Source: a bacterium
GTDB lineage: Bacteria; Myxococcota_A; Polyangia; HGW-17; JAJRWW01
Direction of reading: 5' to 3'
Length of the DNA: 64,000 nucleotides
Assembly (NCBI GenBank): GCA_043825095.1
Contig: JBDRSE010000199.1
Location: 11,842-75,841 of the forward strand
The translations under genes and the position numbers were made by a program. Under the pieces are notes generated by a model. That model saw nothing but the letters and a program-made list of their open reading frames with translations. It searched no databases and was not told the origin of the DNA. Numbering within the stretch: the first letter of the stretch is position 1; every line of letters begins with the position of its first letter. Shown here in pieces: positions 4,529 through 58,792 of this stretch.

Positions 4529-5052
4529 CGCCCGAGTATCTACCTGGTGTCCCGCCTGGACAAGGCCTGATCTATAGTCTGCGCAGGGAAACCGATTTCG
4601 AGCTCGTGAGGGAGACAGGTTGACGACGCACGTTCCGTCAGCACTGTTCAATCTGAGCTGAGACGTGAAATAGTGGCAAGAGCCGTTGGGTGACGGATTT
4701 CGACCGACCGGCATCAGTCCTTGCACACCTGCATGGGAACCCCGTCACTGAGGTAGCAGTGGCAGCCCACCATGTACGTCGCGTGAGTCGTCGTGTCCGT
4801 GCAATGGTGATGCCATGTCTTTTATTAGTGATTACAGAGAGTTGTGACCGCAGATCCGATTGTTTCGTCGAATTGGAGACAGCGATGTCATACTTTGTCG
4901 AGTCAGGTTTCCCGGGATGCCCAATAGCTCGTTGCGTTCCTGACACAGCGAGCTCGGTGTCCAATGGTTGGAGGAGAGGGTTCTTGGGGGGCCGCAGTTC
5001 CTACCTTGACCATCTTGACCGGGTGGGGACGAATCCGATAGAAACGCGGTCG

Positions 5053-7167
5053 ATGACTGGGCAGTTCGTAAGGCGGTACAGCGACCTCGCGCTGGCGGGC
5101 TTGGTGGTGTCGATCATCGCGATGATGATCGTGCCGATGCCGACGTGGCTGCTGGACATTCTTCTGGCCACGAACATCTCCATGGCGGTGATTCTGCTGC
5201 TGGTGTCGATCTACGTGACCCAGCCCATCCGCATCGCGACCTTCCCGGCAATCCTGCTCATTACCACCCTGTTTCGCCTCGGGCTGAACGTGTCGTCCAC
5301 GCGGCTGATTCTGCTTCAAGCCGACGCGGGTGAGGTGATCCAGAGCTTTGGGCACTTCGTAGTGGCGGGCAACATCGTGGTGGGCGTGATCGTGTTTTTG
5401 ATTCTGACGCTCATCCAGTTCGTGGTGATTGCGAAGGGGTCGGAGCGGGTGGCCGAGGTGGCGGCGCGGTTCACCTTGGACGCCATGCCCGGCAAGCAGA
5501 TGTCCATCGACGCGGATCTGCGGGCCGGGACCATCGATCAGGCCGAGGCGCGGCAGCGGCGGGCGGCGCTGGAGCGGGAGTCGCAGCTCTACGGTTCCAT
5601 GGACGGCGCGATGAAGTTCGTGAAGGGCGACGCCATCGCGGGGATCGCGATCACTGTGATCAACATCGTCGGCGGCCTGATCGTGGGCATCTACCAGCTC
5701 AACATGTCCGCGTCGGAGGCGGTACACACGTACTCCCTGCTCACCATCGGCGACGGTCTGGTCTCCCAGATTCCGGCGCTCATCATCTCCACCTCGGCCG
5801 GCATGGTGATCACCCGGGTGGCCTCCGAGGACAATGAGACGCATCTCGGCCAGGAGATCGGCGCCCAGCTGCTGAACCAGCCCAAGGCCATCGCCATCGC
5901 GGCGGTGCTGATGCTGCTGCTCGCCCTGGTGCCGGGGCTCCCGTGGTTCCCCTTCCTGGTGCTGGGCTCACTGTGCGGTCTGGCGGCCTACGGTCTTCTG
6001 CGGCGCGCGGCGCGCGAACGCCGGGCCCGGGCTGAGCGGGGCCCTCCGGGCGAGCTGCGAGCGCTGGCTGTCGCCGGCGACCGAGGGACGAGGCGGCGAG
6101 GTGATCCCGGTGCGTGGGTGCTGGTGCGGCCGATCCTGGTGGAGGTTTCTCCGGAGCTCACGCCGATGCTGACCGACGCCCAGGGACGAGTCCGCCTGGC
6201 GGAAGCGTTCGCGCCGGAGATTCGCGACCGACTGTTCCGGGCCCTGGGCGTGCCCCTGCCTGAGATCCAGGTCCAACTCGAGACGCCGAGCCTGCCGGCG
6301 AGCGGATACCGAATCTTGCTCAAGGAGGTGGTGCTCGGGGAAGGGGAGCTTAAATCGGACCGGGTCCTGGCGCTGGCAACTCCGCCGTTCCTCAAGGGTC
6401 TGGGGATCGAGGCGGAGCCCGCCGAGCTGAGCGGGCTGGAGGGACGCGCGAGCTGGGCCGCCCGCGCTGATGTCGCGAAAGCGCGCACCGCGAGCGTCGA
6501 CGTGGCTCTGGACGACGAAATTCTCGCCAGGCACCTGGAAGCGCTCCTGCGCCGTTACGCCTACGAGTTCGTCACCATCCAGGAGACCCGAGGGCTGCTC
6601 GACGCGCTGCAGGCGAGCCACCCGCAGCTGGTGGAGGAGCTGGTCCCCAAACCCGTGCCCGTGCCCGTGCTCGCCGAGGTGCTGCGGCGGTTGGTGGAGG
6701 AGGGCGTCAACGTGCGACACCTGGCCGATATCCTGCCCGCCCTGGCGGGCCGGGTGAACACCGAGAAGGACGCGGCGCGGCTCGCGGATCACTGCCGGCT
6801 GGCCCTGAGGCGCCAGATCACCCAGCAGTTCACCGGCGACGACGGCTCCCTGGCGGCCGTGGTGCTCGATCCGGAGGTCGAGCAGGTCCTCTTAGAGGCA
6901 ATCCAGTCTGGCGACGGTGGCAGCTATCTGGCCCTGGAGCCCTCCCTCAGCCGGGAGATTGTGGCCGCGGCACGCGCGGCCGTCCGACCTGCCCAGGCCT
7001 CTGGGGAGCTGCCCGTGGTGCTGGCGTCCATGGAAACCCGGCGCTTCGTGCGCGGGCTGCTCGAGGCCGAGCTCCCCGGGGTGACTGTGTTGTCCTACCA
7101 GGAGCTGGCGCCCGACCTGGAGATTCGACCCGTGGCGCGGGTGGAGCTGGGCCGGGCTGGAGATTGA
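5053..7167 (+). CDS. sctV: FHIPEP-family type III secretion export-gate protein (SctV/FlhA homologue)
   Basis: Start reset to ATG 5053 (MTGQFVRRYSDLALAGLVVSIIAMMIVPMP...). Hallmark FHIPEP motifs are present: FPAILLITTLFRLGLNVSSTRLIL, RFTLDAMPGKQMSIDADLRAG, GSMDGAMKFVKGDAIAGI, LLTIGDGLVSQIPALIISTSAGMVITR. The cytoplasmic C-terminal domain of about 350 aa is typical. The symbol assumes a non-flagellar context; flhA cannot be excluded from sequence alone. Confidence 0.88.
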   Translation: MTGQFVRRYSDLALAGLVVSIIAMMIVPMPTWLLDILLATNISMAVILLLVSIYVTQPIRIATFPAILLITTLFRLGLNVSSTRLILLQADAGEVIQSFGHFVVAGNIVVGVIVFLILTLIQFVVIAKGSERVAEVAARFTLDAMPGKQMSIDADLRAGTIDQAEARQRRAALERESQLYGSMDGAMKFVKGDAIAGIAITVINIVGGLIVGIYQLNMSASEAVHTYSLLTIGDGLVSQIPALIISTSAGMVITRVASEDNETHLGQEIGAQLLNQPKAIAIAAVLMLLLALVPGLPWFPFLVLGSLCGLAAYGLLRRAARERRARAERGPPGELRALAVAGDRGTRRRGDPGAWVLVRPILVEVSPELTPMLTDAQGRVRLAEAFAPEIRDRLFRALGVPLPEIQVQLETPSLPASGYRILLKEVVLGEGELKSDRVLALATPPFLKGLGIEAEPAELSGLEGRASWAARADVAKARTASVDVALDDEILARHLEALLRRYAYEFVTIQETRGLLDALQASHPQLVEELVPKPVPVPVLAEVLRRLVEEGVNVRHLADILPALAGRVNTEKDAARLADHCRLALRRQITQQFTGDDGSLAAVVLDPEVEQVLLEAIQSGDGGSYLALEPSLSREIVAAARAAVRPAQASGELPVVLASMETRRFVRGLLEAELPGVTVLSYQELAPDLEIRPVARVELGRAGD

Positions 7168-7237: not shown

Positions 7238-7321
7238 TGCGAAAGGGGGGAGTCGAACCCCCACAGGCTTGCGCCCACAGGAACCTGAGTCCTGCGCGTC
7301 TACCAGTTCCGCCACTTTCGC
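7238..7321 (-). tRNA. tRNA-Leu (anticodon CAG), class II with long variable arm; CCA not encoded
   Basis: Reverse strand reads GCGAAAG-TG-GCGGAACTGGTAGACGCG-CAGGA-CTCAGGT-TCCTG-TGGGCGCAAGCCTGT-GGGGG-TTCGACT-CCCCC-CTTTCGC-A. It has a 7-bp acceptor stem, an anticodon loop CT-CAG-GT, a TTCGA T-loop and a variable stem-loop. Confidence 0.9.
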
Positions 7322-24557: not shown

Positions 24558-27500
24558 CTACGGATCGGGTTTCGACAGACAGCGGTGTTTCCTCGGTCGG
24601 GGCCGACGAACTGCGCGGCCCCGGTCCCAGGTCGCCGGGAAGGCCGCCCAGATTCGTCGCATGACCGAGCAGTCGTCCTGATGGAAGATGGTGAGGTCGA
24701 TGGAGGCGGTGTCGGCCAGCTCCGTTGCGACGTAGAGACGTCGGCCGATTCGCCGGAGAAGATGCACGGGGCCGTGCAGGCGCCGCCGCGCCAGGAGCGT
24801 GCCGGTGTTCCGATTCCAGAGCCCGGCGGTGCCGTCCTGAAAGCCCACGGCCAGGGTTCCTTGCGGCCCCTCGGCCAGGTGGGTCACCGGACGAGCCGGA
24901 GTGTTTTCCAAGGGCCGGTGCCGCAGTTTGCCGCGGCGCGCCCGCGGTGCCAGCTCGATGGTACCGTCCCGGTGACCGAGGATTAGCAGCTCCGCGGTGA
25001 GCATCATGGCGGTGACACCGGGATCCACGGCGGTCTTGCCAGCGGGGCGTCCCTGCGGATCGAGCTCGTGAACCGCCGAGCGGGTGGCCACCAGGAGTCG
25101 CCCCCGAGACAGGGCGATCACACCGGCCCCGGAGGGAACGAGGGTCTGCTTGACCTTGCCGGGCCCGAGCACGAGGCTCACGCTTCCCCGGGCGAGCCCG
25201 GCGACGCCCCCGGCAAAGGGGACCACCTTCTCGATACCCGGCCACCTCGTGCTCCAGCGTCTGATCCCGCGCCGGACGTCCCAGAGCTCGACGCGGTCCC
25301 GTTGCGGAACGAGCGCGACACGGCCGCCGTCTTGGGAGAGCGCCGCGTGGAGCACGCCGCGGTGGATCGCAGTGATCAGCCGCGCCTCCTCCGGGTCGGT
25401 GGGTTTGCCGAGGGGCGCGCCGCGCGTTCCGAAACCCTGCAGGGTAATCAGCCCCCGGCCGGTGATCAGGCGCGGCCGCTCGCCACCGAGCAGGAGCGGG
25501 GCGCGCCAGCGCGGTCGCCCCTCGGGGAGCTCCCAGAGCCGCACGGTGGTGTCGTCGCTGCCGGAGGCAAGCAGGTTGCCGTGGGGACCGAAGGTGACGC
25601 GGTTCACGTCCATGCTGTGCCCGGACAGGGCCAGGAGGAGCTTGCCGCTGGCCACGTCCCAAACGCGGATTCGACGGTCCCGGCTGGCCGCCGCCACTTT
25701 TTTGGAGTCGGGGCTGATCGCGACTCCCCAGAGGTAGTCGGTGGATCCGCGCAGAACCCGCGCCTTGCCCGTGCTCCTGTCCCAGAGTCGCACGGTGGTG
25801 TCGTAGCTGGCCGAGGCGATGAACGCGCCCGACGGCGCGAAGGCGACGGCGGACACGCGATGCGTGTGGCCGCGTAGGACCCGCGCTTTCCCCGTTTCGA
25901 CGTCCCACAACCGCACGGTCCGGTCCCAGGCCGCCGAGGCGATGTGCCTGCCGTCCGGCGCGTAGGCCACACCGAACACGCGGCCGGTGTGGCCGCGAAA
26001 CACACGGGCCTCTCCGCTGGCCACGTTCCAGATACGTATGGTCCGGTCCCAGCTCCCCGAGGCGATGTGCCTGCCGTCGGGCGCGTAGGACAGCCCGTAG
26101 ATCCGGCCGGTGTGTCCGCGCAACACCCGGCTGCTCCCGGTCCGCAGATCCCACAGGCGCACGGTTTGATCCCAGGAGGCGGAGGCGAGCTGCCGTCCGT
26201 CCGACCGGTAGGCGACCTCGATGACCCGGGCTGTGTGCCCCTTCAGCGGTGACGATTGACCGGTGCGCAGGTTCCACAGACGGACGGTGCGATCCTGGCT
26301 CGCAGAGGCGAGCTGCTCGCCGTCCGGGCTGAAGGCCACGCCGGACACCCATCCCTCGTGCCCGCTGGCGAAGCGCCGGGGTGGAGTGCGCAGATCCCAG
26401 AGCTTCATGGTTCGATCGTAGCTGCCCGAGGCCAGCAGGCGACCGGAGCCGCTGAAGCCGAGGCTGCTCACCTGGTCGGCATGAAAGCCGAGGAGTCGGG
26501 TTTCTCCGTTGCGCAGGTTCCGCAGCCGCACGGTGCGGTCGGTGCCCCCCGAGGCGATGCTGTCGCCGCGTGGATCGAAGGCGAGACAGGTGACCGCGCC
26601 GCGGTGTCCGCGCAGCACCCGATGCTCGTTTCGGTCGAGATTCCAGACCCGGACGGTGCCGTCCTCACTCCCAGACGCGAGCCCCGCTCCACTGGGTTTG
26701 CTCGCGACCGTGACCACGCTGTCCGTGTGTCCGGTGAGCGCGCGGCTCGTGCCCCGTCGGAGGTCCCAGACCCGGACGGTGCGGTCCTCGCCTCCGGAGA
26801 AGAGCCGATCGCCGGACGGCGCGAAGCTCACGGCGTTGACGCGCCCATTGTGCCCCCGCAGCGTGGTCACGCCCTTGCGGCTCAGGGACCAGATCTTGAT
26901 GGTGGCGTCACCGGAGGCCGATGCGACGCGATTTCCGGTGGGATCGAAGGCCACGCCGTAGACGCGATCGAGGTGCCCGGTGAGGATGCGGGAGCGGCCG
27001 GTTCGTAGGTCCCAGAGGCGAACGTTTCCGTCCCCGGCCCCGGAGGCCAGGCGGCGGCCGTGCGGTCCGAAGGCGAGGCTGAAGACCTCCTTGCGGTGCC
27101 CGCGCAGCACGCGGACCGCGCCGGTGGTCCAGTCCCAGAGCCGGATGGTGCCGTCGTAGGCGCCGGTCGCCACGAGGGAGCCGTCCGGCGCCGCGGCCAC
27201 GGAGAAAACCGACTCCGGGTGCTGGGCCCGGAATTTGAGCTGCCGGTTCCGCAGGGTCGCGAAGAGCGCGCGGGCGCCCACCGAGTCCGACACCTCGAAG
27301 GAGGCCCGGAGCTTGGCCCGGGATTCGGCGAAGGCGCGGCGGAGCAGGGCGGCTTGCGCGCCTTCGAGCAGCGCCAGTGACAGCCGCGACCGGGCTTTGG
27401 CCCGCGCCGCCAGCGCCTCGCTGCGGGCCTGCTGGGCGCGCCGCTCCTTCGCCCGGATCCACATGAAGGCGGCGACGGCCAACCCGAACAGCAGGAGGCC

Positions 27501-30179
27501 GCCCACCAGGCCGAACCGGAGCCGCGCCAGCCGTACTGACTGCGCCCGGGCCTCGCGCGCGCTCCGGGTGATGAACTGCTCGAGCTCCTCGGGCAGCGGG
27601 TCGCTGCGGCGCTCACGCCAGTCGATCGCCTCGGCCAGCGAGAGTCCTCTCCACAGGTCCTCGGCGCGTCGCCCACGTCGCTTCCACTGCTCCACGGCGG
27701 CCTGGAGATCGGCTTGCAGGTTCACGTCCTCGAGGCTCTCCTCGCGCCACCGGCGGAGCTGCTCCCAGCGGTTGATGAGGGATTCGTGCACCAGCTCCAG
27801 CAGGGACACCGAACGGTCGCCGGCCAGGGCCCGGCGGCTGGCTACCAGGCGCGCGGCGACCAGGTGCGCCACCGCCTCGGCGGCGCCGGCCCCCACCTGT
27901 GCGATGAGCCGGTCCTCCTGGGCCGTGGCGCGTGTGCCGTCCGGTGTGACGAGGCTGACGAGCACCTCGGGTGCCGCCCGGGCCGCGTCGCCGACGAGCC
28001 CTGACAGGACCTGGTCCGCGTGCTCGGCCAGCGCACCGGCCACGCCACCGATGGCTTCGTAGGTGGAGCGGCAGAGAACCTTGCGATCCCGATCCCGGCC
28101 CTCCCACAGCCGCTGAGCGGCGAACTGCAGGAGCGGGAGGCCGGACTGTTCCTGGGCCACCTCGGCCACCATTTCCCCGACGAGCTCGTCGTCTTCGAAC
28201 CGGTACCCCCGGCGCGCCAGCGGCCGGGTGAGGGTGTCGTGGAGCGCGGTGGGGCCGGGTGTGCGGATCACCACGATGCCTCGGGCCACCTCGGCCACGA
28301 ACTCCGGGAACACCGCCAGGCGACCCAGGAAGTCCTCGCGCAGGGTGAGCACCACCCGCACCGGGCCGTCCGGATCATCCGCCGCGAAGAGCAATGCCTG
28401 GCAGAAGGCCGCGCGCTCCTCAGGATCCTCCACCAGGGTGAAGAGCTCCTCGAACTGGTCCACGACGAGGATCACGTTCCCGGAGGTGCGGTGCGCGCGC
28501 TCGCGGAGCAGGCGACCCAGTTGGGCCGGAGAATCGCGCAGCTCTTGGGCCAGCTCCCGGCGCGTCTGCACCTGACCCGGATCCGGGAGGGCCGGGGCGC
28601 TCTCGGTGCTCGTCGTTTCCTGGAGCAGTCGGCCGGCAATGGCGAGCAGCGGGGTCGCGCCCGGGCGCAGCACGATGGGGTCCCAGGGCCCGAGCTGTTC
28701 GAGCCGGGGCACGACGCCCGCCTGTACGAAGGACGACTTGCCGGCTCCGGAGGGGCCGACCACCGCCACCAGCGCAGCCTCTCTCAGCCGTTCCACGAAC
28801 GCGGCGCTCTCCGGGTCCCGCCCGAAGAACAGGTCGGCATGGGCACGGCGAAAGGGCATCAAACCGCGAAATGGGCTCTTGTCCTCGTCCTCCTGCGTTC
28901 GTGCGCGACCGCCGCTGTGCAGGGAGAGCTCGTCGGCGATGGCCGACGCGCTCGGGCGCTGGGTGGGGTCCCGGTGCAGGCACCGCTCGCAGAGGAGGGC
29001 CAGGGCGCGGGGGAGTTTGGGATCCAGCGCCAGCGGTGACGGTGTGGGCCGCTCTTCGTCGGTCACCTGCTCATAGATCGCCACCGGGGAGCCCTGGTAG
29101 GGTCGCTCGCCGCACAACGCCTCGAACAGCGTCACGCCGAAGGCCCAGATGTCCGTGGCCGGCCCGAGCTCCTCTTGGCGCCACTGCTCGGGGGCCATGT
29201 AGGGGGCCGTGCCGCGGAGGGCCGAGTGATGCTCCTGGTTGTCCAGCGCTGCGGTGGGGATGTTGTCTTCCTCCCGGAGCGTGTCCAGAGGCTGTAGCGG
29301 CGGCCGGTGGACCAGCCGGGAGAGGCCGAAGTCCAGCACGCGCAGCCGCCCGTCCCTCGGCAGGAAGATGTTCTCCGGTTTCAGATCGCAGTGCAGGATA
29401 GACTGCCGATGGGCCTCTGCCAGGGCTTGTGCCACGCGTCGAGCCACCAGGACCGCCTCCCCGGTGGCGAGGCGGCCGTGGCGGAGGCGGACGCGTAGCG
29501 AGATGCCCGGCAGGTACTCGAGGGCGACGTAGGGGCAGCCGCGCACCTGGCCGAGCCCATAGATGGTCACGATGTTTGGGTGGTTGAAACGCGCCGTGGC
29601 GCGGGCCTCGAACAGGAATCGCTCCACGGCGCCGGCGGACGCGACGAGGTGGGGGTGTACGACCTTGATCGCCACCTTCCGCCCGAGCAGGGCGTCCCGC
29701 GCCAGGTACACCGCGCCCATACCGCCCTGACCGACGGCGCGTACGATCTCGTACTGATCCACCCGCTCGCCGGGGTCGAGGAGCTGATCGGAATGGCGCT
29801 CGCGTGGTGACTCCGAAAGGCCTTCGTCCTGCTGCAGCGTGGGCTCCGTTCCGGAGCTGGCGGCGTCCACGGCTTGGTTGTCCGAGCGGGCGACCTCGAG
29901 GGTTTCGCCGGCGGCCTGCTGCGCCTCGGCCTCGCTGATCAGGGTGAAGAGCTCTTGCGGCGACAGCGTCTCGCGGTCCGGGTCCACCGGATCCGGAGTG
30001 TCGGTTTCGGCGGTCGCCGCCCGTTCGGCCATCTCCTCCAGCAGCCGTACCGCCCGCTGGCCGAGCGCCAACCCGCGGACCTGGAGCGCTCGAATCTGGC
30101 CGGCGCGCAGCGTTGCGGCGTCGGAGTCCAGTCCGATGGCCTCGAGTAGCAGGCGTAGACGGTCGGTTTCGGTGGACAT
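24558..30179 (-). CDS. Ser/Thr protein kinase - STAND (nSTAND-like P-loop NTPase) - TM segment - 14x WD40 - degenerate C-terminal propeller
   Basis: Kinase: [42 protein letters not shown]. Walker A: [21 protein letters not shown]. Walker B-like: [13 protein letters not shown] hydrophobic segment [20 protein letters not shown] follows, then 14 tandem WD40 units (..ASGS.D.TVRLWDL). ATG 30179 is preferred over TTG 30212. Confidence 0.9.
25525..27215 (-). repeat. Tandem array of 14 WD40-encoding units (period about 120-126 nt) inside the kinase-STAND gene
   Basis: Protein-level repeats were counted by eye from [28 protein letters not shown] to [28 protein letters not shown]. This is coding repeat sequence, not a CRISPR array. 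Confidence 0.8.
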
Positions 30180-30335
30180 GGTGATCGTCCCGGGGTCGGT
30201 CCCCTGGCGCAAGCCTACGCGATGCGGTCTCGGCCTTCAACACCGGGCGGTCCGCAGGCTCCCCGGTTCGGGTGTGGTTCCCTGCGATCGAGGCCGCGGG
30301 CAGCTCAACTTCCGCGCCCCCCCGCTCCACGCACC

Positions 30336-38374: not shown

Positions 38375-39898
38375 TCAGCTCAGCAGGTGGATGTAGCCGT
38401 GCAGTCGGGTCACCAGCTCCTTGTCGTTGAGCTGCGGAACCAGCCAACAGAGCATCGAGCTTTTTGTGCCGTCCTTGAGCTCGAAGGAGAAGGCGCGCTG
38501 CAGCGGTCCGCTGCTCGGTTTGCGGATCAGCCGGTCGGCGTCGGTCTGGATGCTGGGGTAGACGATGGCGATGCGCGTGTCCTCGATGACTCGTCCGCGC
38601 AGGTGCTCGAGGGGAGTGCGCACGAAGTAGCAGAACGCCTCGTTGGCGTAAACGATCCGCGCCTGGGTGTCGAGCTGGAACATGGGAAAGGGGCTCTGGT
38701 CCACGAGGGGCTGGTAGATGGGGTCGGACCGCTTCGCGATCAAGGGTTTGTCCCCCGTGGTGCCGCGCTTTCGCGCGCCGGGGAAGTTGTACATCTCCAT
38801 CACGGTCCGGAGCTGAAAGATCACCTGTCCCATGGAGCGCTGGCGTTCCTTGGGGTTCTTCTGCAGCGCCTCCAGGATGACCGCTTCCACGCGGCTCTCC
38901 AAAGGCTCCTCCATGAGCCGGGAGGGCGGGATGGGCTCCTGCTGGAGCTGGGCGATGATGACGTCCTCCAGGGTGCCGACGAAGGGCACCCCGCCGGTGA
39001 GCATCTCGTAGAGCAATGTGCCCAGCGCGTAGATGTCCATGCTCGGCTGCGGCGACTCGCCGTTGATCAGCTCAGGCGCCATGTAGTGCGGTGTGCCGCC
39101 GACCTCGATGTCGGCCAGCCTCACGTTTGAGGTGCGGGGGCGGGAGAGCCCGAAGTCGATGATCTTGACCAGGGTTCGTTGGCGGCCGTCCGCCGGGGGG
39201 CGGCAGAGGAAGACGTTCTCTGCCTTTACGTCACAGTGAATGAAGCCCTGGCCGTGCATGTAGTGCAGCGCCTCGGCAACCTGCAATGCGATCTCGAGCG
39301 CCTGATGCACCCGGAGCCTGGTCTGTCGTCTCAGCCGCTGGTGCAGGGTTTCTCCCTTGAGGTACTCCATGACGAGAAACGCGCCGTGCCGCTCGTCCAC
39401 TCCGAAGTCGATGATCTGGACGATGTTCGGGTGATCCAGGCGGCTGGCCGTCTTGGCCTCCCGCAGGAACAGCTGTCGGGCGCGCGGCACGAGAGACGGC
39501 TGCGCCTCGATGACCTTGAGCGCGAACTCCTTGTCCATGTGGATGTGCCGGACCTTGTAGATCTCGGACATGCCGCCGGCGCCGAGCTTCTCCACGATCC
39601 GGTAACGATACCCGATGGGCGGGGTGACACCCTCCTGGGAGTCCCGGAGCTCGAGCTCGTCGGTTTCCCAAACGGTGGTGGTGACGCGGTCACTGGTGAC
39701 GCGCTCACCCACGAGGTCTTCTCCCGGGCGGGTGACGTCTTCGTGATCCACGTCGAAGTCGTAGGCGTGCACGGTCCCGATGGATGAGATGCGGTTCGGA
39801 TCCGGCAGCGGTTCGAGCCCCCCTGTGCGTCGACGCTTCCGGGGAGGCTTCCTCGGGGCCACGGGCGTTTTACCACTGGGGTTCTTTTGATCAGTCAC
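38375..39898 (-). CDS. Ser/Thr protein kinase with C-terminal PAS-like domain
   Basis: GTG start. Kinase: GAGGMSEIYKV, FALKVI, HCDVKAENVF, DFGLSR, GTPHYMAPE. The C-terminal part PFPMFQLDTQARIVYANEAFCYFVRTPLEHLRGRVIED... is PAS-like. Confidence 0.9.
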   Translation of the reverse strand: MTDQKNPSGKTPVAPRKPPRKRRRTGGLEPLPDPNRISSIGTVHAYDFDVDHEDVTRPGEDLVGERVTSDRVTTTVWETDELELRDSQEGVTPPIGYRYRIVEKLGAGGMSEIYKVRHIHMDKEFALKVIEAQPSLVPRARQLFLREAKTASRLDHPNIVQIIDFGVDERHGAFLVMEYLKGETLHQRLRRQTRLRVHQALEIALQVAEALHYMHGQGFIHCDVKAENVFLCRPPADGRQRTLVKIIDFGLSRPRTSNVRLADIEVGGTPHYMAPELINGESPQPSMDIYALGTLLYEMLTGGVPFVGTLEDVIIAQLQQEPIPPSRLMEEPLESRVEAVILEALQKNPKERQRSMGQVIFQLRTVMEMYNFPGARKRGTTGDKPLIAKRSDPIYQPLVDQSPFPMFQLDTQARIVYANEAFCYFVRTPLEHLRGRVIEDTRIAIVYPSIQTDADRLIRKPSSGPLQRAFSFELKDGTKSSMLCWLVPQLNDKELVTRLHGYIHLLS

Positions 39899-39947: not shown

Positions 39948-39952
39948 CCGAG

Positions 39953-40027
39953 GGATGTGTTCACGGGGCGCGCCGTTTGCGGCACCCAGAGCGTAGCGAG
40001 GCACCCCGGAGGGGGCGGGAGGGAGGG
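39953..40027 (-). repeat. Dispersed intergenic element, copy A
   Basis: Reverse strand: TTCCCTCCCTCCCGCCCCCTCCGGGGTGCCTCGCTACGCTCTGGGTGCCGCAAACGGCGCGCCCCGTGAACACATCCC. It aligns with copies B and C (see findings). Confidence 0.85.
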
Positions 40028-40157
40028 AATTTCGGGCGAAAACAAAACTCCTTCGCGTGCGTAATTTTCGCTTGTTTTATACGAAATCGCTCTGCTAAGA
40101 CTGCGCAGGACACATTGGCTGGTACTCCGGCTTGGTCGGGTGCCACGGGGTGGAATC

Positions 40158-40580
40158 ATGTTGAGTGAGAATGAGGAGCGCACCGCCGGGCGGTCCGCAA
40201 CGCGCGGGCTGCTTTGGCAGGCCGAGGACGCAGTGGGCGCCGAGCGGAGGCTCGCGGAGCGAGTGCTGATCGACTGCGAGGTGGACTTCGCCTCCGAGGA
40301 CACTTTCTTGTTTGCGTACGCGACAAACATCTCAGCTCTCGGGATCTTCCTGCAGACCCGGGAGCCCGAGCCCGTCGGGACCCGCATGAACCTCGGGTTT
40401 ACCGTGCCCAACGGCGGGGAGCGGCTCGAGGTCGAGGGGATCGTGCGCTGGATCAACCCCTACCGACCGGGTGATTTCAACAATCTCAACCCCGGGATGG
40501 GGATCGAGTTCCTCTCGCTGACCGAGCCGCAGCGGGAGCTGATCGTCGATCTGATCCGATTGATCGCCTACCTCGCGTAG
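40158..40580 (+). CDS. PilZ-domain protein (c-di-GMP-binding motifs intact)
   Basis: RxxxR (RLAER) and N-x-S-x-x-G (NISALG) motifs with typical spacing. The beta-barrel region ends at GMGIEFLSLTEPQRELI. ATG 40158 is preferred over the track's GTG 40140. Confidence 0.8.
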   Translation: MLSENEERTAGRSATRGLLWQAEDAVGAERRLAERVLIDCEVDFASEDTFLFAYATNISALGIFLQTREPEPVGTRMNLGFTVPNGGERLEVEGIVRWINPYRPGDFNNLNPGMGIEFLSLTEPQRELIVDLIRLIAYLA

Positions 40581-50480: not shown

Positions 50481-52319
50481 CTACTGACAGGCGGCTGACG
50501 AACCCACGCCGACGCATTGCAGGTTCCCGGTGCACGGGGGCGCGGCGCCGCACGCGCAGGAGCCGGCCACGCACTGATTCGCCCGATTGGCGTCACAGGG
50601 GCTCGCGCACCCACCACAGTGGTTCGGGTCGGTGTCCTGGTCCACGCAGACGTTCAGGGTTCCGCAGCAGTCGCCCGCGCTGCCGGTGCACTCGTCCACC
50701 CCGTCGTCCGTCGTCCCGTCCGTGCAGTTGTCGTCCACGCCGTTGCAGAGCTCGGGCGCGTCGGGGTGACGCATCATGTCGTAGGGCGCGCAGTCTTCGC
50801 ACCCGACCAGCCCGGGGGCCAGGGTGAGTCCGGCGCAGCCCGTGCAGGCGAGATAGCCGTCGCTGTCCGGATCCTGCTCGTCCGCGGGGAGGTCACCGTT
50901 GCAGTCGTCGTCGAGCCCGTTGCACTGCTCCGGCATGGGCCCCACGAACCCTGTCGAGCACACGAAGTGCTCGTTGAAGGCACCGGCGGTCACCTGACCG
51001 AGGTCGCAGCCCACGACCACGCCCGCGACGCAGCGGCCCACGTCGGTGCCGCAGGGTTGGCCCGTTTCGAGCAGGCTGGACCCGGTGGGGTCGTCCACCC
51101 GACCGTCGCAGTCGTGATCGAGCTCGTCGCACTGTTCGATCTGGGGGGCCGGGGCGAAGAAGCAGCGCGGTGAAGCCTGCGCGGAGAGATTCTCACCGAT
51201 GCAGGCGTGACGGTTGAACCCATCGCGTTCGGTGTTGGGGATCGAGTGGGAACAGATGCAGCGACCCGGGCCGTTGGGATCGCCGCACAACCCGTCGCTG
51301 TCGTCATTGCAGTACAGGTCGATCATCGGTTGGCCGTTGGGGCCGGGGTTGCCCTCGTCCACCAGGCCGTTGCAGTTGTCGTCGATGCCGTTGCAGAGCT
51401 CGACCGCTCCGGGGGAGACGAGGGGATTGGTATCGTCGCAGTCTACAGCGGCGTTGTAACCGTCTCCGTCGTTGTCGTCGGTGCAGGGAGTGTCCGTGTT
51501 GCAGTTCTGCAGGATCCCGTCGCCGCAACGATCCGGAGCGCCGGGGTACACGAGCGGATTGGAGTCGTCGCAGTCCTCCAGACCCGGGGGGGGAGTGCAG
51601 CCGGCGCTCGAGTTCATGAAGCCGTCTCCGTCGGCGTCGCACGCCGGGTCCGGACAGCCCTCGTCGATGCTGCCGTCACAGTCGTTGTCCAGCCCGTCAC
51701 ACAGGCGCAGCGCAGCGCAGGCGGGATCGCCTCCCTCCAGGCCGCCGCAGGAGTCGGTAATCCCTGGGAAGACGCCCGCGTTCGTGTCATCGCAGTCGGG
51801 CTCCTGCCCCGGGGGGTAGCTCGGCCCGGGGCAGCCGTTGGCGGGGTCGTCGCGCTCGAATCCGTCCCCATCCAGGTCACAGGGGGTGCAGCCTTCGTCG
51901 ATCTGGCCGTCGCAGTTGTCGTCCCGGCCGTTGCCGCACTGCTCCGTGCCACCGGGACGAACGGTCGGGTCGTTGTCATCGCAGTCCACGTCGGCCGGGG
52001 CGCCGTCGCAGTCCTGGTCGACGACGCACTCGACGTCTTGGCCGTCACAATCTTGATCGATTCCGTCACTGCACCGCGGATCGGAGAGTCCTTCCGGGTG
52101 CTCCGCGGTGGGGCAGGAGTTCGGGGCCTCCGGATTGCCGGGGAACCGGTCTGGATCGTTGTCGTCACAGTCCTGCGACGCGGGCGACCCGTCCCCGTCA
52201 GCGTCTTGCTGGCCGTTGAGATTCCCGTTGTTGAGGTTGTCGTTGCCGACGGCGTCGTCATCACCGCAGCCGTTCTGCAGGAGCATCATCACGAGCGGAA
52301 GCAAATAGGAATAACGCAT
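50481..52319 (-). CDS. Cys-rich secreted protein built from MopE-type putative metal-binding repeats (DCDD...PGA.E.CNG.DDDCDG..DE)
   Basis: Start reset to ATG 52319 (MRYSYLLPLVMMLLQNGCG). Repeats include DCDDNDPTVRPGGTEQCGNGRDDNCDGQIDEG, DCDDTNPLVSPGAVELCNGIDDNCNGLVDEG, DCDDSNPLVYPGAPDRCGDG and CDGLDNDCDGSIDEG. The C-terminal stretch is Cys-rich. Confidence 0.8.
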   Translation of the reverse strand: MRYSYLLPLVMMLLQNGCGDDDAVGNDNLNNGNLNGQQDADGDGSPASQDCDDNDPDRFPGNPEAPNSCPTAEHPEGLSDPRCSDGIDQDCDGQDVECVVDQDCDGAPADVDCDDNDPTVRPGGTEQCGNGRDDNCDGQIDEGCTPCDLDGDGFERDDPANGCPGPSYPPGQEPDCDDTNAGVFPGITDSCGGLEGGDPACAALRLCDGLDNDCDGSIDEGCPDPACDADGDGFMNSSAGCTPPPGLEDCDDSNPLVYPGAPDRCGDGILQNCNTDTPCTDDNDGDGYNAAVDCDDTNPLVSPGAVELCNGIDDNCNGLVDEGNPGPNGQPMIDLYCNDDSDGLCGDPNGPGRCICSHSIPNTERDGFNRHACIGENLSAQASPRCFFAPAPQIEQCDELDHDCDGRVDDPTGSSLLETGQPCGTDVGRCVAGVVVGCDLGQVTAGAFNEHFVCSTGFVGPMPEQCNGLDDDCNGDLPADEQDPDSDGYLACTGCAGLTLAPGLVGCEDCAPYDMMRHPDAPELCNGVDDNCTDGTTDDGVDECTGSAGDCCGTLNVCVDQDTDPNHCGGCASPCDANRANQCVAGSCACGAAPPCTGNLQCVGVGSSAACQ

Positions 52320-52420: not shown

Positions 52421-52434
52421 GGAGGAAACTTCTC

Positions 52435-52512
52435 GGTATGTGTTCACGGGGGGGCTATTTGCAGCACCTCCCGAGCGCAGCGAGGTTCCCCCGGAGGGGG
52501 CGGAGGGGGAGA
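52435..52512 (-). repeat. Dispersed intergenic element, copy B
   Basis: Reverse strand: CTCTCCCCCTCCGCCCCCTCCGGGGGAACCTCGCTGCGCTCGGGAGGTGCTGCAAATAGCCCCCCCGTGAACACATACC. Confidence 0.85.
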
Positions 52513-52698
52513 GCTGAGCCGCGAAGCGGCGGATTGATCTCCGGCAGGTGCCAGCCTTCGCACCGCGCCGAAACCAGCCCGACAGCTCCGCCGCTCCGCG
52601 GCGGGGTACACCCCTGTCGTCCCCTCAAGAGGAAGCCCGCGCGGCGCAGGGGGCGCAGTGCCGTCTCCCACGTGAACGGTTACACTTCTCGAAGGGCT

Positions 52699-54249
52699 CT
52701 ACAACGGAATGTTGCCATGGCGGCGCGGCTCGCGGCGCTCGCGCTTGTGCTCCAGCGCGGTCAGGGCAGCGAGGATCCGCTCCCGGGTTTCCGAGGGCTG
52801 GATGACCTCGTCAATGTAGCCCCGGGAGGCGCCCACGTAGGGGGAAGCGAAGCGGTTCTGATAGTCTGTCACGAGCCGCTCGTGCTCGGCGTCCTTGTCT
52901 TGGGCGGCGGCCAGATCCTTGCGGAAGACGATGTTCACCGCCCCCTCGGGGCCCATCACGGCCAGCTCGGCGGTGGGCCAGGCATAGTTTACGTCCGCGC
53001 CGAGATGCTTGGACGCCATGGCGATGTAGGCGCCGCCATAGGCTTTGCGGATGATTGTGGTCACCAGCGGGACCGTGGCCTCTGAGTAGGCGTAGAGCAT
53101 TTTGGCGCCGTGCCGGATGATCCCGCCGTACTCCTGCTGCACCCCGGGCAGAAAGCCGGGCACGTCCACAAAGGTCACGATGGGGACGTTGAACGCGTCG
53201 CAGAAACGCACGAAACGGGCGCCCTTGTCCGAGGCGTTGATGTCGAGGCAGCCGGCGTAGAACTGCGGGTTGTTGGCGACCACACCCACGACCTTGCCGC
53301 CGATGCGGGCGAAGGCGGTGATGATGTTCGGCGCGTATTTGGCCGCCACGGGCATCACGGTGTCGGGGTCCATGACCATCTTGACCAGGGGCAGCATGTT
53401 GTACACGCGGCGGACGTTGTCGGGCAGGTGGTTGGTCAGCTTCTCGCTGAAATCCTCCACCTCCGCCGGCGGATCGATGGAGGGCGGCTTCTCGTCGCAG
53501 TTGCTGGGCAGATACGACAAGAGCTTGCGGATCTGCTCGATGCAGTCCTCGTCGTTCTTGGTGGAGAAGTGAGCGACCCCGGACTTGCCGCACTGCGGCT
53601 TCACCCCGCCGAGGTCGTCCATGGACACCTCCTCGCCGGTGACGGTCTTGATCACCTGTGGGCCGGTGATGAACATGTGGCTGGTCTTGTCCACCATGAA
53701 GATGAAGTCCATCAGGGCCGGCGAATACACGGCCCCGCCCGCGCAGGGGCCCATGATGGCGGCAATCTGCGGCACGCGGCCCGACGCCTGGGTGTTCCGG
53801 TAGAAGATGTCTCCGTAGCCCTGCAGCGCGCCTGCGCCCTCCTGGATCCTCGCGCCCCCGGAGTCGTTCAGGGCGATGATCGGCGCGCCCACCTTGGTGG
53901 CCATGTCCAGCACCTTGCAGATCTTCTGGGCCACGGTTTCGCTCAGCGTGCCCGCGTAGACGGTGAAGTCCTGGGCGAACACGAAGACGGTCCGGCCGTG
54001 CACCTCCCCGTAGCCCGTGACCGCGCCGTCACCGGGCAGGTGACTCTTGTCCTGGCCGAAGTCGGTACAGCGGTGCACTTTGAACGCATCCACCTCGTGG
54101 AAGGTCCCCGGGTCGAGCAGCTTGGCCAGGCGCTCTCGGGCCGTCAGTACACCCTTGGCGTGCTGCTTCTCGACGCGGTCCTCGCCGCCGCCGGCCAGGG
54201 CTTCGGCGCGTTTGTCCTGTAGCTGGTTGACGAGCTCTTCCATCTTCAT
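52699..54249 (-). CDS. pccB: Propionyl-CoA / methylmalonyl-CoA carboxyltransferase beta subunit
   Basis: Start reset to ATG 54249 (MKMEELVNQL...). HAKGVLTARERL, VFVFAQDFTVYAGTLSE, IALNDSGGARIQEG, GPCAGGAVYSPALMDF, PIVTFVDVPGFLPG and IIRKAYGGAYIAM match acyl-CoA carboxylase carboxyltransferase subunits. No biotin-carboxylase partner gene is in the window. Confidence 0.92.
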   Translation of the reverse strand: MKMEELVNQLQDKRAEALAGGGEDRVEKQHAKGVLTARERLAKLLDPGTFHEVDAFKVHRCTDFGQDKSHLPGDGAVTGYGEVHGRTVFVFAQDFTVYAGTLSETVAQKICKVLDMATKVGAPIIALNDSGGARIQEGAGALQGYGDIFYRNTQASGRVPQIAAIMGPCAGGAVYSPALMDFIFMVDKTSHMFITGPQVIKTVTGEEVSMDDLGGVKPQCGKSGVAHFSTKNDEDCIEQIRKLLSYLPSNCDEKPPSIDPPAEVEDFSEKLTNHLPDNVRRVYNMLPLVKMVMDPDTVMPVAAKYAPNIITAFARIGGKVVGVVANNPQFYAGCLDINASDKGARFVRFCDAFNVPIVTFVDVPGFLPGVQQEYGGIIRHGAKMLYAYSEATVPLVTTIIRKAYGGAYIAMASKHLGADVNYAWPTAELAVMGPEGAVNIVFRKDLAAAQDKDAEHERLVTDYQNRFASPYVGASRGYIDEVIQPSETRERILAALTALEHKRERREPRRHGNIPL

Positions 54250-54862: not shown

Positions 54863-56512
54863 GTGACCGAAACGCAGGCTAACGCACCGAAAAAACGACG
54901 TCCTCGCACGTGGTGGGGGAGGATCTCGTTGCCCACCCGCATCCTGATCGGCATGGCTGTCGGGGTGGTGGTGGGATTGCTGCTGGGCCCGCGATCAACG
55001 CTGCTCGAGCGGGACACCCTGGTGATCCGGGAGCGGGGCGAGACGCTGAAGACGGCGCCCGATCCCAGGGCGGAGCCGGTCAATCCCGAGGGTGAAGGGA
55101 CGCTGCTGCTCGAGGTGCTGGGGCGGGTGCAGGGCGTCGATGGGCAGCCGTACTACAAAGTTCGGTTCCGGCAGGAGGCACGGGAGGTCGAGATGGAGCC
55201 GGGGAAGGCGCGGACCCCGGGCAGGAAGATCGCCGCGCGGACCGTGGTGGCCTACCTCGCGGTGGCCGGGGCGCCCCCCCCGGTGAGCCGCTTCGGCCAC
55301 GCTCTGCTCGAGATATTGAATCCCTTTGGGCGGTTGTTCTTGCGGCTGATCAAGATGGTCATCGTGCCCCTGGTGTTTGTCTCCCTGCTCCTCGGTGTTG
55401 CGTCCCTGGGCTCGCTGGGCAAGCTCGGGCGGATGGGCGGGGTGACCTTTACCTACTTCCTGGCCACCACGGCGCTGGCAATCACCATCGGACTGACCCT
55501 GGCCAACGTGGTGAAGCCGGGGAAGTACGTAAAGCCAGAGGACCGGGACAAGCTGAGCCGCGCCTACGCGGAGAAGGCGCAGGAGAAGACCAAGTCCGAG
55601 GAGGCGAAGCAGGGCACGCTGAACCGGCTCGTGGACATGGTGCCCGACGTGCCGCTGTGGTCGGCCACCAAGCGGCACCCCAACATGCTCCAGCTCATTG
55701 TGTTCGCTTTCATCATGGGCATCGGGTTCCTGCTGATCCCGGCGGCCCGGGCGGCGCCGGCCCTGGCCGTTTTCGAGTCCATCAACGACGTGATGGTCAA
55801 GATCGTGGAGCTCGTCATGGAGCTGGCACCCTTCGGCGTGCTGGCGCTGCTGGCCGGCGTGGCGGGCACCGCCGGCGTCGGGGTGCTGGGCGCCCTCGCG
55901 GCCTACAGCGGTGTGGTGCTTGCGGCGCTCGCGATCCACACCGCGGTCACCTACAGCCTGGCGGTGCGGTTCCTGGCGCGCTACCCGCTGCGCCGCTTCT
56001 ACACCGGGATCCGCAAAGCCCAGCTCATCGCCTTTTCCACCTCCTCCAGCTCGGCCACGCTGCCGGTGTCCATCCAGGTGGCCCGGGAGAACCTGGGTGT
56101 GTCAAACCGGGCGGCCGGGTTCGTGCTGCCCCTCGGCGCCACGGTGAACATGGACGGCACCGCGCTGTACCAGGGCGTGGCCGCCGTGTTCATCGCGCAG
56201 GTCTTCGGCATGAACCTGACCGTTGTCCAGCAGATGGAGGTGCTCTTTACGGCGACCCTGGCCTCGGTGGGCGCGGCGGGCGTGCCCGGGGCGGGGATCA
56301 TCACCCTGGCCATGGTGCTCACCGCCATCGGCGTGCCCACCGCGGGCATCGCCTTGATCCTCGGTGTGGACCGGCTGCTGGACATGTTCCGCACGGGCGT
56401 CAACGTCACCGGAGATCTCTCCGCCACGGTGCTGGTGGCCCGGATGACGGGGGAGTTCGACAACGGCGTGCCGCCGGCTGACGCCCGGGATGGGGAAGGG
56501 GAAACCGGTTAG
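54863..56512 (+). CDS. Dicarboxylate/amino acid:cation symporter (DAACS, GltP/GltT family) with an insertion of about 95 aa in the TM1-TM2 loop
   Basis: GTG start. FLRLIKMVIVPLVFVSLLLGVASLG, SSSATLPV, GATVNMDGTALYQGVAAVFIAQ and AGVPGAGIITLAMVL match conserved DAACS hairpin and TM7-TM8 regions. Confidence 0.9.
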   Translation: MTETQANAPKKRRPRTWWGRISLPTRILIGMAVGVVVGLLLGPRSTLLERDTLVIRERGETLKTAPDPRAEPVNPEGEGTLLLEVLGRVQGVDGQPYYKVRFRQEAREVEMEPGKARTPGRKIAARTVVAYLAVAGAPPPVSRFGHALLEILNPFGRLFLRLIKMVIVPLVFVSLLLGVASLGSLGKLGRMGGVTFTYFLATTALAITIGLTLANVVKPGKYVKPEDRDKLSRAYAEKAQEKTKSEEAKQGTLNRLVDMVPDVPLWSATKRHPNMLQLIVFAFIMGIGFLLIPAARAAPALAVFESINDVMVKIVELVMELAPFGVLALLAGVAGTAGVGVLGALAAYSGVVLAALAIHTAVTYSLAVRFLARYPLRRFYTGIRKAQLIAFSTSSSSATLPVSIQVARENLGVSNRAAGFVLPLGATVNMDGTALYQGVAAVFIAQVFGMNLTVVQQMEVLFTATLASVGAAGVPGAGIITLAMVLTAIGVPTAGIALILGVDRLLDMFRTGVNVTGDLSATVLVARMTGEFDNGVPPADARDGEGETG

Positions 56513-56547
56513 TTCTTGGTGCAGGTCACGCTCAGCTCGTAGCCGGA

Positions 56548-56609
56548 CTCCTCCGGGGCGCCTCGCGACGCTGTGGGTGCTGCAAATATCACCCCCGTGA
56601 ACACATACC
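56548..56609 (+). repeat. Dispersed intergenic element, copy C (opposite genomic orientation to A and B, same orientation relative to the downstream gene)
   Basis: CTCCTCCGGGGCGCCTCGCGACGCTGTGGGTGCTGCAAATATCACCCCCGTGAACACATACC. It lies 36 nt after the DAACS stop and 47 nt before ATG 56657. Confidence 0.85.
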
Positions 56610-56656: not shown

Positions 56657-58792
56657 ATGTGGCCGAAAACCGCTCGTTATGTCTCCATCGTTACACTTCT
56701 GGTGTGGGTCGGCGGCTGCGGAGGCTCTACGGGGGGCGACGTCGACGCGACAGCCGACGCGTCCGGGTTGGGCGACGCGGAGCCGGACGGCTCGACAGTG
56801 ACGTGGGAGGGAGCGGTCGGGGACGTCACCTTTGTCGGCCCCTGGGGCGGTGCGACGACAGTAATCGTGGAGGATCCGACCCAGGCCGGGCGTGTCTACG
56901 CCGTCGTGGGAGATCGGCCCTTCCGATCGGACGACGACGGGGCCACCTGGCAGCGGCTCGCAGACCCCCCGGCGGGCCGCGCGTTGAGCCTGTTGGTGCT
57001 TCCTGACGGGCGCGTGGCCATGGGCAGCGACGTCGACGTGCTGATCTCCGCGGACCAGGGCGACAGCTGGCAGGACATTACCGGGAACATGGAGGCCGGC
57101 CTTGGATACGGCATCATGGCCCATGGGCTCGCCTACGAAACCGGCAACGCCACGCGGCTCTGGGCCGCTTTGAACACGTACTCCACGGCCCCGCTGTGGT
57201 TTCTGCCCGAGGGGGACACCACCTGGCAGCCTTGGAACGCGCCCGCCGGTTGGGACACCAACCCGCTCAACGGTGCGGCCCTGTTCCGGTCCATCGATGC
57301 CCGGGTCGACAGCGGCAGCGGACAGACCTTCATCTTTACCACCTACGAGGAGAGCTTCGGCAGCGGGGGCGGTGTGTTCTGCTCCGTGGACTCCGGAGCG
57401 ACGTGGAACGACTGCTCGGGCAGCCTGCCCGCGGTGCCCTACAACCGGGTCCGCATCTTCGACGGGCAGATTGTGCTCGCCGGGGGTCAGATGTTCGGCA
57501 GCGCCTACGCGGGGGTCTACTACTCCGAGGACGACGGGGCGTCCTGGACCCAGGCGGTGGGCGGGTGGAGCGAGCCCGTCGGCAACGACTTCATCCGGCT
57601 GCAGTCGGGTGAATTCGTGGTGGCGACCTACGGGAACGGGATCCTGCGATCGGCCGATTTGACGGCGCCCTGGACCGCCTTCCCCGGCTTCGACGGCATG
57701 GAGGTGCATACCCTGATCGAGCTCGCGAGCGGGGAGCTCCTGGCCGGGCCGGAACAGCTCGGAGTCGCCCGGAACGCCGACGACGGCACGCCGTGGAGCT
57801 TCTCCTCCGAGGGGCTCGAACTGGCGGCGGTGGACAGCGTGGCCGTGGATCCCGCGGAGCCGATGTCGCTGCTGGCGGCCATGTCCTCGCTCAACTCGGG
57901 GCTCGTTCTGCACACCACGGAGGGGCTCGCAGGCTGGCACGTCATCGACACCTTGCCGTTCCCGCGCTACTCGCTGGTGCACATCTCGGGCAGCGGCCGC
58001 TGGTACGTCGTCTCCGACGGCCCCACGGGACAGGCGAACGACGGCATCTACCGCTCCGTTGACGGGGGCGGCACCTGGGAGTTCCTCGGGCCCGAGCAGG
58101 GCAGCATGATGGACCACGATCTCATCGGGATCCTGGAGCTCGAACAGCCCCAGCGCCTCGTCACCGCGGGCCAGTACTGGGCCGGGGGAGAGCGGCGGCC
58201 CTTCCTGTTGGAAACCACCGACGGCGGCGCCACCTGGAGCCAGCTCTGGCTGGGGGAACCGGATCACGCGTCGTCGGCCCTCGTGCGCTCCCCGGAGGGC
58301 TCCTACCTCATAGCGGTGCAGAACGAGTCCATCGTGCGCGTCTCGGCCACTGGTGACACCAGCGAAACGCTCACCATCCCGGCCGTGGTGGATGGCCAGG
58401 TCACGGCGTTGGCAGGCTGTGAGGCGAGCGCGGACCGCCTCGCGGCCGTCGGCCTCGTGGATGACCAGACCTACGACTTCGGGGTCTTCTACTCGGCGGA
58501 CGGCGGCACTACCTGGTCGACCCTCGACTTCGCGCCAAATCCGAACGAGCGGCCCCGCTTCGTTGCGCTGCACCCCCACGACTGCTCCCTGGTGTTCCTG
58601 TCGACGTCCGAAGGGCGGCTCCTCCACTCCTCGGATGCCGGCCTGAGCTGGACCGACCTGGATCTCGGCGCGACCCTGGGGATCACCGGACTGCGCGTCG
58701 TCCCCGTGGCGGCGAACCACGAGGCCGTGCTCCTGGTGTACGGCACCGGCGGCGCGGTGGCCGTGCGGCTCACGAGCACGCCGGTCGACTGA
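56657..58792 (+). CDS. BNR/Asp-box repeat beta-propeller protein (sortilin/Ycf48-like), probable lipoprotein
   Basis: Signal: MWPKTARYVSIVTLLVWVGGCGG. There are multiple S-x-D-x-G-x-(T/S)-W Asp-boxes (SDDDGATWQ, SADQGDSWQ, SVDSGATWN, SEDDGASWT, SVDGGGTWE, TTDGGATWS, SADGGTTWS, SSDAGLSWT). Confidence 0.8.
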   Translation: MWPKTARYVSIVTLLVWVGGCGGSTGGDVDATADASGLGDAEPDGSTVTWEGAVGDVTFVGPWGGATTVIVEDPTQAGRVYAVVGDRPFRSDDDGATWQRLADPPAGRALSLLVLPDGRVAMGSDVDVLISADQGDSWQDITGNMEAGLGYGIMAHGLAYETGNATRLWAALNTYSTAPLWFLPEGDTTWQPWNAPAGWDTNPLNGAALFRSIDARVDSGSGQTFIFTTYEESFGSGGGVFCSVDSGATWNDCSGSLPAVPYNRVRIFDGQIVLAGGQMFGSAYAGVYYSEDDGASWTQAVGGWSEPVGNDFIRLQSGEFVVATYGNGILRSADLTAPWTAFPGFDGMEVHTLIELASGELLAGPEQLGVARNADDGTPWSFSSEGLELAAVDSVAVDPAEPMSLLAAMSSLNSGLVLHTTEGLAGWHVIDTLPFPRYSLVHISGSGRWYVVSDGPTGQANDGIYRSVDGGGTWEFLGPEQGSMMDHDLIGILELEQPQRLVTAGQYWAGGERRPFLLETTDGGATWSQLWLGEPDHASSALVRSPEGSYLIAVQNESIVRVSATGDTSETLTIPAVVDGQVTALAGCEASADRLAAVGLVDDQTYDFGVFYSADGGTTWSTLDFAPNPNERPRFVALHPHDCSLVFLSTSEGRLLHSSDAGLSWTDLDLGATLGITGLRVVPVAANHEAVLLVYGTGGAVAVRLTSTPVD

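Follow-up and report, generated by a model that had tools for sequence, protein, structure and literature searches.

A candidate MITE family in a Polyangia genome, with one intact copy, two left-end remnants and a metagenomic relative interrupted by an IS110-family element

Bacterial MITEs, such as the Correia/NEMIS elements of Neisseria, are up to ~400 bp long, have terminal inverted repeats, duplicate their target, lack a transposase gene, and form a long stem-loop (PMC3184786). Two families of insertion sequences also bear on the repeat described here. IS66-family elements have inverted repeats that start GTAAGCG and are flanked by 8-bp direct repeats (PMC11946415, PMC12888890). Repeated elements are known targets of IS110-family elements (PMC11208160); REPs are targeted by IS621 in E. 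coli and by ISPpu9 and ISPpu10 in Pseudomonas putida (PMC11208160, PMC12288879), and the guides of the IS621 bridge RNA lie in the order LTG, RTG, LDG, RDG (PMC11208160).

Here, we analyzed a 64-kb stretch of DNA (the window; 67.6% G+C) in which an earlier note had described a conserved intergenic element in three copies (A, B, and C) and proposed that it was a regulator-binding site, a 5′ UTR or small RNA module, or a REP/MITE-like dispersed repeat. The last of these candidates is supported by terminal inverted repeats, an 8-bp target-site duplication, a homologue in an unrelated context, and the absence of the element from relatives. We consider it probable (about 0.8) that the repeat is a new MITE family, represented in the window by one intact copy (B) and two remnants (A and C). 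Like described bacterial MITEs (PMC3184786), it is small and without coding capacity, has terminal inverted repeats and a target-site duplication, lies between genes, forms a single long stable stem-loop, and occurs as a mixture of intact and decayed copies; unlike them, it comes from an uncultured Polyangia host, and two of its three copies in the window are one-ended. No similarity to described families was detected in Rfam, the plasmid collection (no BLAST match to the 248-bp unit), or the literature, and we found no earlier description in the literature of MITE families in this poorly sampled Polyangia lineage. Documenting such a family there is of modest wider interest; a second point of modest wider interest is that the family is a natural target for an expanded IS110-family element.

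An intact 248-bp copy and two left-end fragments

All three copies, ~62 to 75 nt long as first described, were present where the earlier note had placed them and were 78 to 83% identical. Over the shared core, pairwise identity was 78% for A and B, 80% for A and C, and 83% for B and C (53/64 columns, close to the 51/62 previously counted by hand). The block structure described for the core was seen again in the alignment, with the conserved blocks separated by indels of 1 to 2 nt. A 17-mer, CCCCGTGAACACATMCC, occurred exactly three times in the window (39952 to 39968 and 52435 to 52451 on the minus strand; 56593 to 56609 on the plus strand), and an nhmmer profile built from A, B, and C found no fourth copy in the 64-kb window. 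An independent 3.1-kb query from another sample (metagenome contig L029, described below) matched the window at the A, B, and C sites only (E values of 4 × 10−9 for A, 8 × 10−50 for B with a second piece at 8 × 10−12, and 5 × 10−8 for C). The strands and the distances to the next start codon given previously were likewise correct (~54 nt for A, ~115 nt for B, and ~47 nt for C).

What had been described as copy B (52435 to 52512, minus strand) proved to be one end of a larger unit. B runs on for another ~170 nt to form a 248-bp element (Table 1), of which the described copy is the left-end third; the core takes up the outermost 62 nt at that end. The tips were set independently, as the points where similarity to metagenome contigs L022 and L029 ends, and these points were exact at both tips. 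A perfect 8-bp duplication, ACTTCTCG, abuts both tips. The terminal inverted repeats match at 14/18 positions (binomial chance tail, ~4 × 10−5 to 3 × 10−4), with a similar match in the L029 copy, and the right tip, CACGTGAACGGTTAC, has one exact occurrence in the window. No ORF was found in copy B, and indels between B and the metagenome copy leave no ORF common to both. In the predicted fold, the terminal repeats pair and the unit forms a single long stem-loop over its full length (−142.3 kcal/mol; z = −5.6; 0/200 shuffles equally stable). The C-rich extension previously noted in A and B is indeed common to these two copies; its real nature, as judged from the full unit, is one arm of the internal palindrome (52493 to 52511, plus strand).

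Copies A and C keep the outer ~73 to 80 nt of the left end only (Table 1); the alignment paired A with B positions ~3 to 76 and C with positions 1 to 62. Nothing significant resembling the right end was found near A or C or elsewhere in the window beyond B; by eye, a degenerate 12-nt candidate beside C (56519 to 56530) matched 8/13 positions, had no target-site duplication, and was unconvincing. Relative to B, core identity was 78% for A and 83% for C versus 91% for the metagenome copy. A and C are thus further from B than the metagenome copy and would appear to be older, decayed copies. Both break near a G-run region (GGAGGGGGCGGAGGGGG), and one might guess that this region is fragile. In all, three copies, one of them intact, were seen in 64 kb and the metagenome added at least two contexts; the target-site duplication was evaluable in one copy (B).

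Table 1. Coordinates of the repeat copies, their parts, their neighboring genes, and the guide-like segments (window positions unless L029 is given)
Feature	Coordinates	Strand	Sequence or basis
Complete MITE-like element (copy B)	52436–52683	+	Transposon orientation GTATGTGTTCACGGGG ... CCACGTGAACGGTTAC
Left target-site duplication copy	52428–52435	.	ACTTCTCG; read from the sequence, script-located
Right target-site duplication copy	52684–52691	.	ACTTCTCG
Left terminal inverted repeat	52436–52453	+	GTATGTGTTCACGGGGGG
Right terminal inverted repeat	52666–52683	+	Reverse complement GTAACCGTTCACGTGGGA
Uninterrupted counterpart of the IS110-family insertion site	52616–52631	+	GTCGTCC-CC-TCAAGAG; junction comparison with L029 and guide-like segments
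Copy A, left end only	39953–40025	+	~1–76 of the MITE, local alignment to B; earlier note, 39953–40027, −
Copy C, left end only	56530–56609	−	~1–62 of the MITE, then a divergent patch, then GAGCTGAGC
Ser/Thr kinase-PAS gene, beside copy A	38375–39898	−	
PilZ gene, beside copy A	40140–40580	+	Divergent from the kinase-PAS gene
MopE-repeat lipoprotein gene, beside copy B	50481–52319	−	
Acyl-CoA carboxyltransferase gene, beside copy B	52699–54249	−	Stop codon toward copy B
Sodium:dicarboxylate symporter gene, beside copy C	54863–56512	+	
BNR-repeat gene, beside copy C	56657–58792	+	
LTG-like segment	L029 1656–1664		CCCGTCCCT; left target top strand plus core, terminal G-U pair allowed
RTG-like segment	L029 1683–1689		CTTGAGG; reverse complement of core plus right target
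LDG-like segment	L029 1726–1735		GTAGCGAGTC; IS right end
RDG-like segment	L029 1761–1767		TTACAGG; reverse complement of IS left end

Syntenic relatives, flanking genes, and a proposed route of insertion

The protein collection contained no entry identical to the carboxyltransferase encoded beside copy B; the best matches there were relatives at 85 to 86% identity, and a more distant one (77%) was labelled Polyangia. Two syntenic relatives were recovered, one as loci L008 and L009 and the other as L010 and L011, with the gene order symporter, small ORF, carboxyltransferase ... PilZ, kinase, ABC-F. The element was absent from all four loci and was missing at all three positions. In the spacer between the PilZ and kinase genes, the three genomes share two landmarks, a 35-nt block (40065 to 40099 in the window) and the kinase promoter (TTGTTC/TACAAT in the window; TTGTTC/TACACT and TTTGTC/TATACT in the relatives). 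By eye, these landmarks are spaced 116 nt apart in the window versus 37 and 51 nt in the relatives, an excess of ~65 to 80 nt that matches copy A in length. By this comparison, copy A is an insertion of ~65 to 80 nt immediately upstream of the conserved kinase promoter. The 35-nt block itself (minus strand, CTTAGCAGAGCGATTTCGTATAAAACAAGCGAAAA) is conserved in L008 and L010 and unrelated to the repeat; it is probably a PilZ promoter or operator. The MopE-repeat lipoprotein and BNR-repeat genes are missing in both relatives, where the symporter gene stands directly before a trypsin-like gene, and these two genes are lineage-specific insertions adjoining copies B and C.

A plausible sigma-70 promoter had been placed between the element and the gene at both A and B. 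The site near B was found by promoter scan (TTGACC-18-GATAAT; 10/12); the predicted kinase promoter near A (TTGTTC-N17-TACAAT) fell under the scan threshold yet is conserved in the two relatives. Copy A ends 4 nt and copy B 14 nt before the downstream −35 box. The only own-strand promoter-like site that the scan placed next to any copy belongs to the native flank of B, and no outward-facing promoter was found by eye within the element. By inserting 4 and 14 nt ahead of −35 boxes, the MITE could have changed the promoter context, which would be an ordinary local effect. The copies probably adjoin promoters because intergenic DNA tolerates insertions and not because they regulate the genes.

Copy B inserted between the carboxyltransferase and MopE-like genes, duplicating 8 bp of its target; we propose that a transposase encoded elsewhere in the genome moves the element in trans. 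Pfam detected no transposase domain among the main window ORFs that were scanned. An autonomous parent would be expected to be bounded by GTAnnnGTTCACG ... CGTGAACnnTAC and to carry a transposase gene; none with the same ends was found in the fetched loci, and the collection scans were limited to exact patterns. The GTAA/GTAT tips, together with the 8-bp duplication, offer a lead toward an IS66-type origin of the ends. As in the IS66 family, the duplication is 8 bp, and the right tip, GTAACCG, matches GTAAGCG at 6/7 positions; unlike in that family, the left tip, GTATGTG, matches at 5/7, and no IS66-type TnpC was found in the window or beside the copies.

The claim that the left tip always points toward the next start codon held for B and C. 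With divergent genes on its two sides, copy A would face a start codon in either orientation, which makes it uninformative and leaves two informative cases. In B, C, and perhaps L029 (if this contig is not chimeric), the inner or right end lies 0 to 24 nt past the stop codon of the upstream gene, and the left tip is turned toward the promoter of the next one. This proximity, seen in two or three cases, might reflect the choice of target or a terminator/insulator effect. The orientation of the element is identical in these tandem-gene contexts (again counting L029 if not chimeric), which hints at target preference or selection.

Two further features of copies B and C were observed. Inside the right end of B, ~50 nt downstream of the carboxyltransferase stop codon, lies a terminator-like hairpin with a T-rich tail (52636 to 52650, minus strand). 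Segments of B (52435 to 52468) and C (56576 to 56609) stand in inverted orientation over 34 nt, are 94% complementary, and flank the 4.1-kb carboxyltransferase-symporter block, an arrangement on which inversion could act. The genes have the same order and orientation as in the relatives, indicating that no inversion between B and C has occurred.

An IS110-family element within the metagenome copies

Copies outside the window came from metagenome scans. An exact-pattern scan of GTDB representative genomes gave 7 chance matches, the first exact pattern gave 0 matches in JGI metagenomes, and exact-pattern scans of IMG/VR gave chance matches only; each of these scans demanded exact blocks such as GTGAACACAT and would overlook a diverged copy like that in the metagenome, which reads GTGAACGCAT, so that their negative outcome is weak evidence. 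A second metagenome scan, with the 5′ half of the core as the pattern, returned one true match among 16, the 2.3-kb contig L022. This contig ends 30 nt past the element and aligns to the B region over ~205 nt rather than 75. A near-identical contig from another sample, L029, extends beyond it. Positions 115 to 303 of L029 correspond to the left part of B (window 52436 to 52625; ~83% identical), and positions 3158 to 3219 correspond to the right part (window 52623 to 52683; ~84% identical by BLAST); the two parts are separated in L029 and directly adjacent in the window. Identity of the L029/L022 copy to B was ~83% over the element and 91% in the core.

The DNA that splits the MITE at its center is an IS110-family element of 2.85 kb (L029 304 to 3157; also L022 1 to 2101 on the reverse strand). 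L022 and L029 are 99.87% identical over 2,290 nt, with 2/3 mismatches in the MITE part. Their flanks diverge exactly at the left tip of the MITE, which places the repeat in at least two genomic contexts, and the pattern fits insertion of the same IS into two different MITE copies. No target-site duplication was found at L029; the two flanks of this contig may come from different copies joined by the assembler, and the absence of a duplication there carries little weight. The surroundings of the metagenome copy are unrelated to those in the window and include mobile-element genes.

The IS is expanded, with two extra small ORFs (143 and 154 amino acids [aa]) ahead of a 413-aa DEDD/IS110-family transposase; one of the small ORFs is winged-helix-like, with weak PHROG matches only. 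In L029, the IS (TGTAAGG...GCGAGT) is placed between two copies of CC, and the corresponding site is uninterrupted in B. Related IS copies (L031 to L035, L044, and L045) have the same IS ends and quite different flanks and targets. Following relatives of the IS110 transposase yielded no further MITE copies, as those IS copies occupy other targets.

Immediately before the transposase gene, L029 has four guide-like segments that run LTG, RTG, LDG, RDG (Table 1), the same order and strand logic as in the IS621 bridge RNA (PMC11208160). From matches of 7 to 10 nt per segment, we predict that the center of the MITE is the target of the L029 IS via bridge-RNA-like guides; the family also acts as a landing site for an IS110-family element. 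This arrangement resembles the targeting of REPs by IS621 and by ISPpu9 and ISPpu10 (PMC11208160, PMC12288879) in that the target is a dispersed, palindromic, intergenic repeat entered at one fixed internal position and the guides match both the target and the IS ends. It differs from those systems in that the target is a 248-bp MITE with terminal inverted repeats and a target-site duplication rather than a short REP, the IS, at 2.85 kb and with two additional small ORFs, is an expanded form, and the pairing is predicted from the short sequence matches. Because copy B represents the unoccupied target, the predicted guides can be read off directly, providing a natural donor/target/guide triplet for work on bridge recombinases.

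Two minor observations concern the IS and its relatives. A second LDG-like motif, again GTAGCGAGTC, occurs in the IS left end at L029 343 to 352 and at L031 349 to 358, ~1.3 kb upstream of the transposase-adjacent copy; this motif might represent a guide module, duplicated or relic, that predates acquisition of the small ORFs. Homologues of the 154-aa winged-helix-like ORF, some of which match PF13730, were found directly upstream of two different transposition modules, one with an IS110-type transposase and the other with an IstA-like (rve/Mu-transpos_C_2) gene and two IstB-like genes (L029 to L035 versus L030 and L036 to L038). These homologues are almost always on short contigs, as expected for repeated mobile DNA.

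Alternative readings of the repeat

Selection could have acted on the repeat beyond transposition. The left-end module might be kept as an orientation-locked terminator or insulator, and the family might be a landing pad coevolving with the bridge-RNA-guided IS110-family element; we regard this as unlikely.

It is somewhat less likely still that the element is a REP/REPIN repeat moved by a RAYT (an IS200/IS605-like tyrosine/HUH transposase) rather than a MITE moved by a DDE transposase. Copy B is flanked by an 8-bp target duplication and has terminal inverted repeats. To our knowledge, neither feature is a product of IS200/IS605-type single-strand transposition. The repeat is G+C rich, palindromic, and intergenic, as a REP would be, and it is targeted by an IS110-family element, as are the REPs of E. 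coli and Pseudomonas (PMC11208160, PMC12288879); however, the unit measures 248 bp versus ~20 to 40 nt for REPs, and no conserved GTAG tetranucleotide is present at its tips.

The first candidate of the earlier note, a shared cis-regulatory (enhancer or regulator) site uniting the kinase-PAS, MopE-like, and BNR genes in a small regulon, is very improbable. The core forms one tip of a 248-bp transposon that has terminal repeats and is flanked by a target duplication, and in L008 and L010 the promoter of the orthologous kinase gene keeps the same −35/−10 boxes but lacks the element. All three copies do precede a gene and turn the same end toward it, and A and B stand 4 nt before the kinase −35 and 14 nt before a strong promoter-like site, respectively; nevertheless, orientation is informative in two of the three copies only, indels of 1 to 2 nt between the blocks are ill suited to a protein site of fixed geometry, and the metagenome copy sits in an unrelated context beside mobile-element genes. 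In annotation, the three intergenic boxes should not be taken as a regulon signal for these genes.

We give an equally low probability to the second candidate, in which the element would be a structured noncoding RNA gene or a 5′ UTR module. A structured RNA would be compatible with the strong fold predicted for the full unit and with a few compensatory changes seen when B is compared with its metagenome counterpart, but both strands fold equally well, as a DNA palindrome should. Moreover, the 62- to 75-nt cores alone fold no better than shuffled sequences on either strand (z from +0.7 to −1.8), and A and C lack most of the structure. The promoters predicted for A and B lie downstream of the element, which places it outside those 5′ UTRs. 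Rfam gave no gathering-score match to the repeat in the whole window and only chance-level matches around B and C at E values up to 10, and RNAalifold on three sequences was uninformative.

One further reading, in which A, B, and C would be solo left ends of the L029 IS110-family element and relics of its bridge-RNA region, as might be read from the position of the repeat at the outer left of a unit with a DEDD/IS110 transposase in that contig, can be dismissed almost entirely: in B, the left and right parts meet directly and no IS intervenes, related IS copies in quite different targets have the same ends (TGTAAGG...GCGAGT, core CC), and the guide-like segments adjoin the transposase gene (L029 1656 to 1767) rather than lying in the repeat. 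With B uninterrupted and the IS boundaries inside the repeat, the repeat is the target of the IS and not its end.

Other candidates were rejected by eye. An opposite-strand ATG would open a small ORF across the core, but the short product differs from copy to copy; an integron attC site, a dif/Xer site, and a sigma-54 promoter were each at odds with the spacing and core motifs.

Two loci elsewhere in the window were also recorded. A very large ORF (24558 to 30212, minus strand; 1,884 aa) combines protein kinase and nSTAND1 NTPase domains with many WD40 repeats. A gene of the FHIPEP family (FlhA/type III export; 4690 to 7167) adjoins an 84-nt tRNA gene with a long variable arm (7238 to 7321; Rfam, 55.4 bits).
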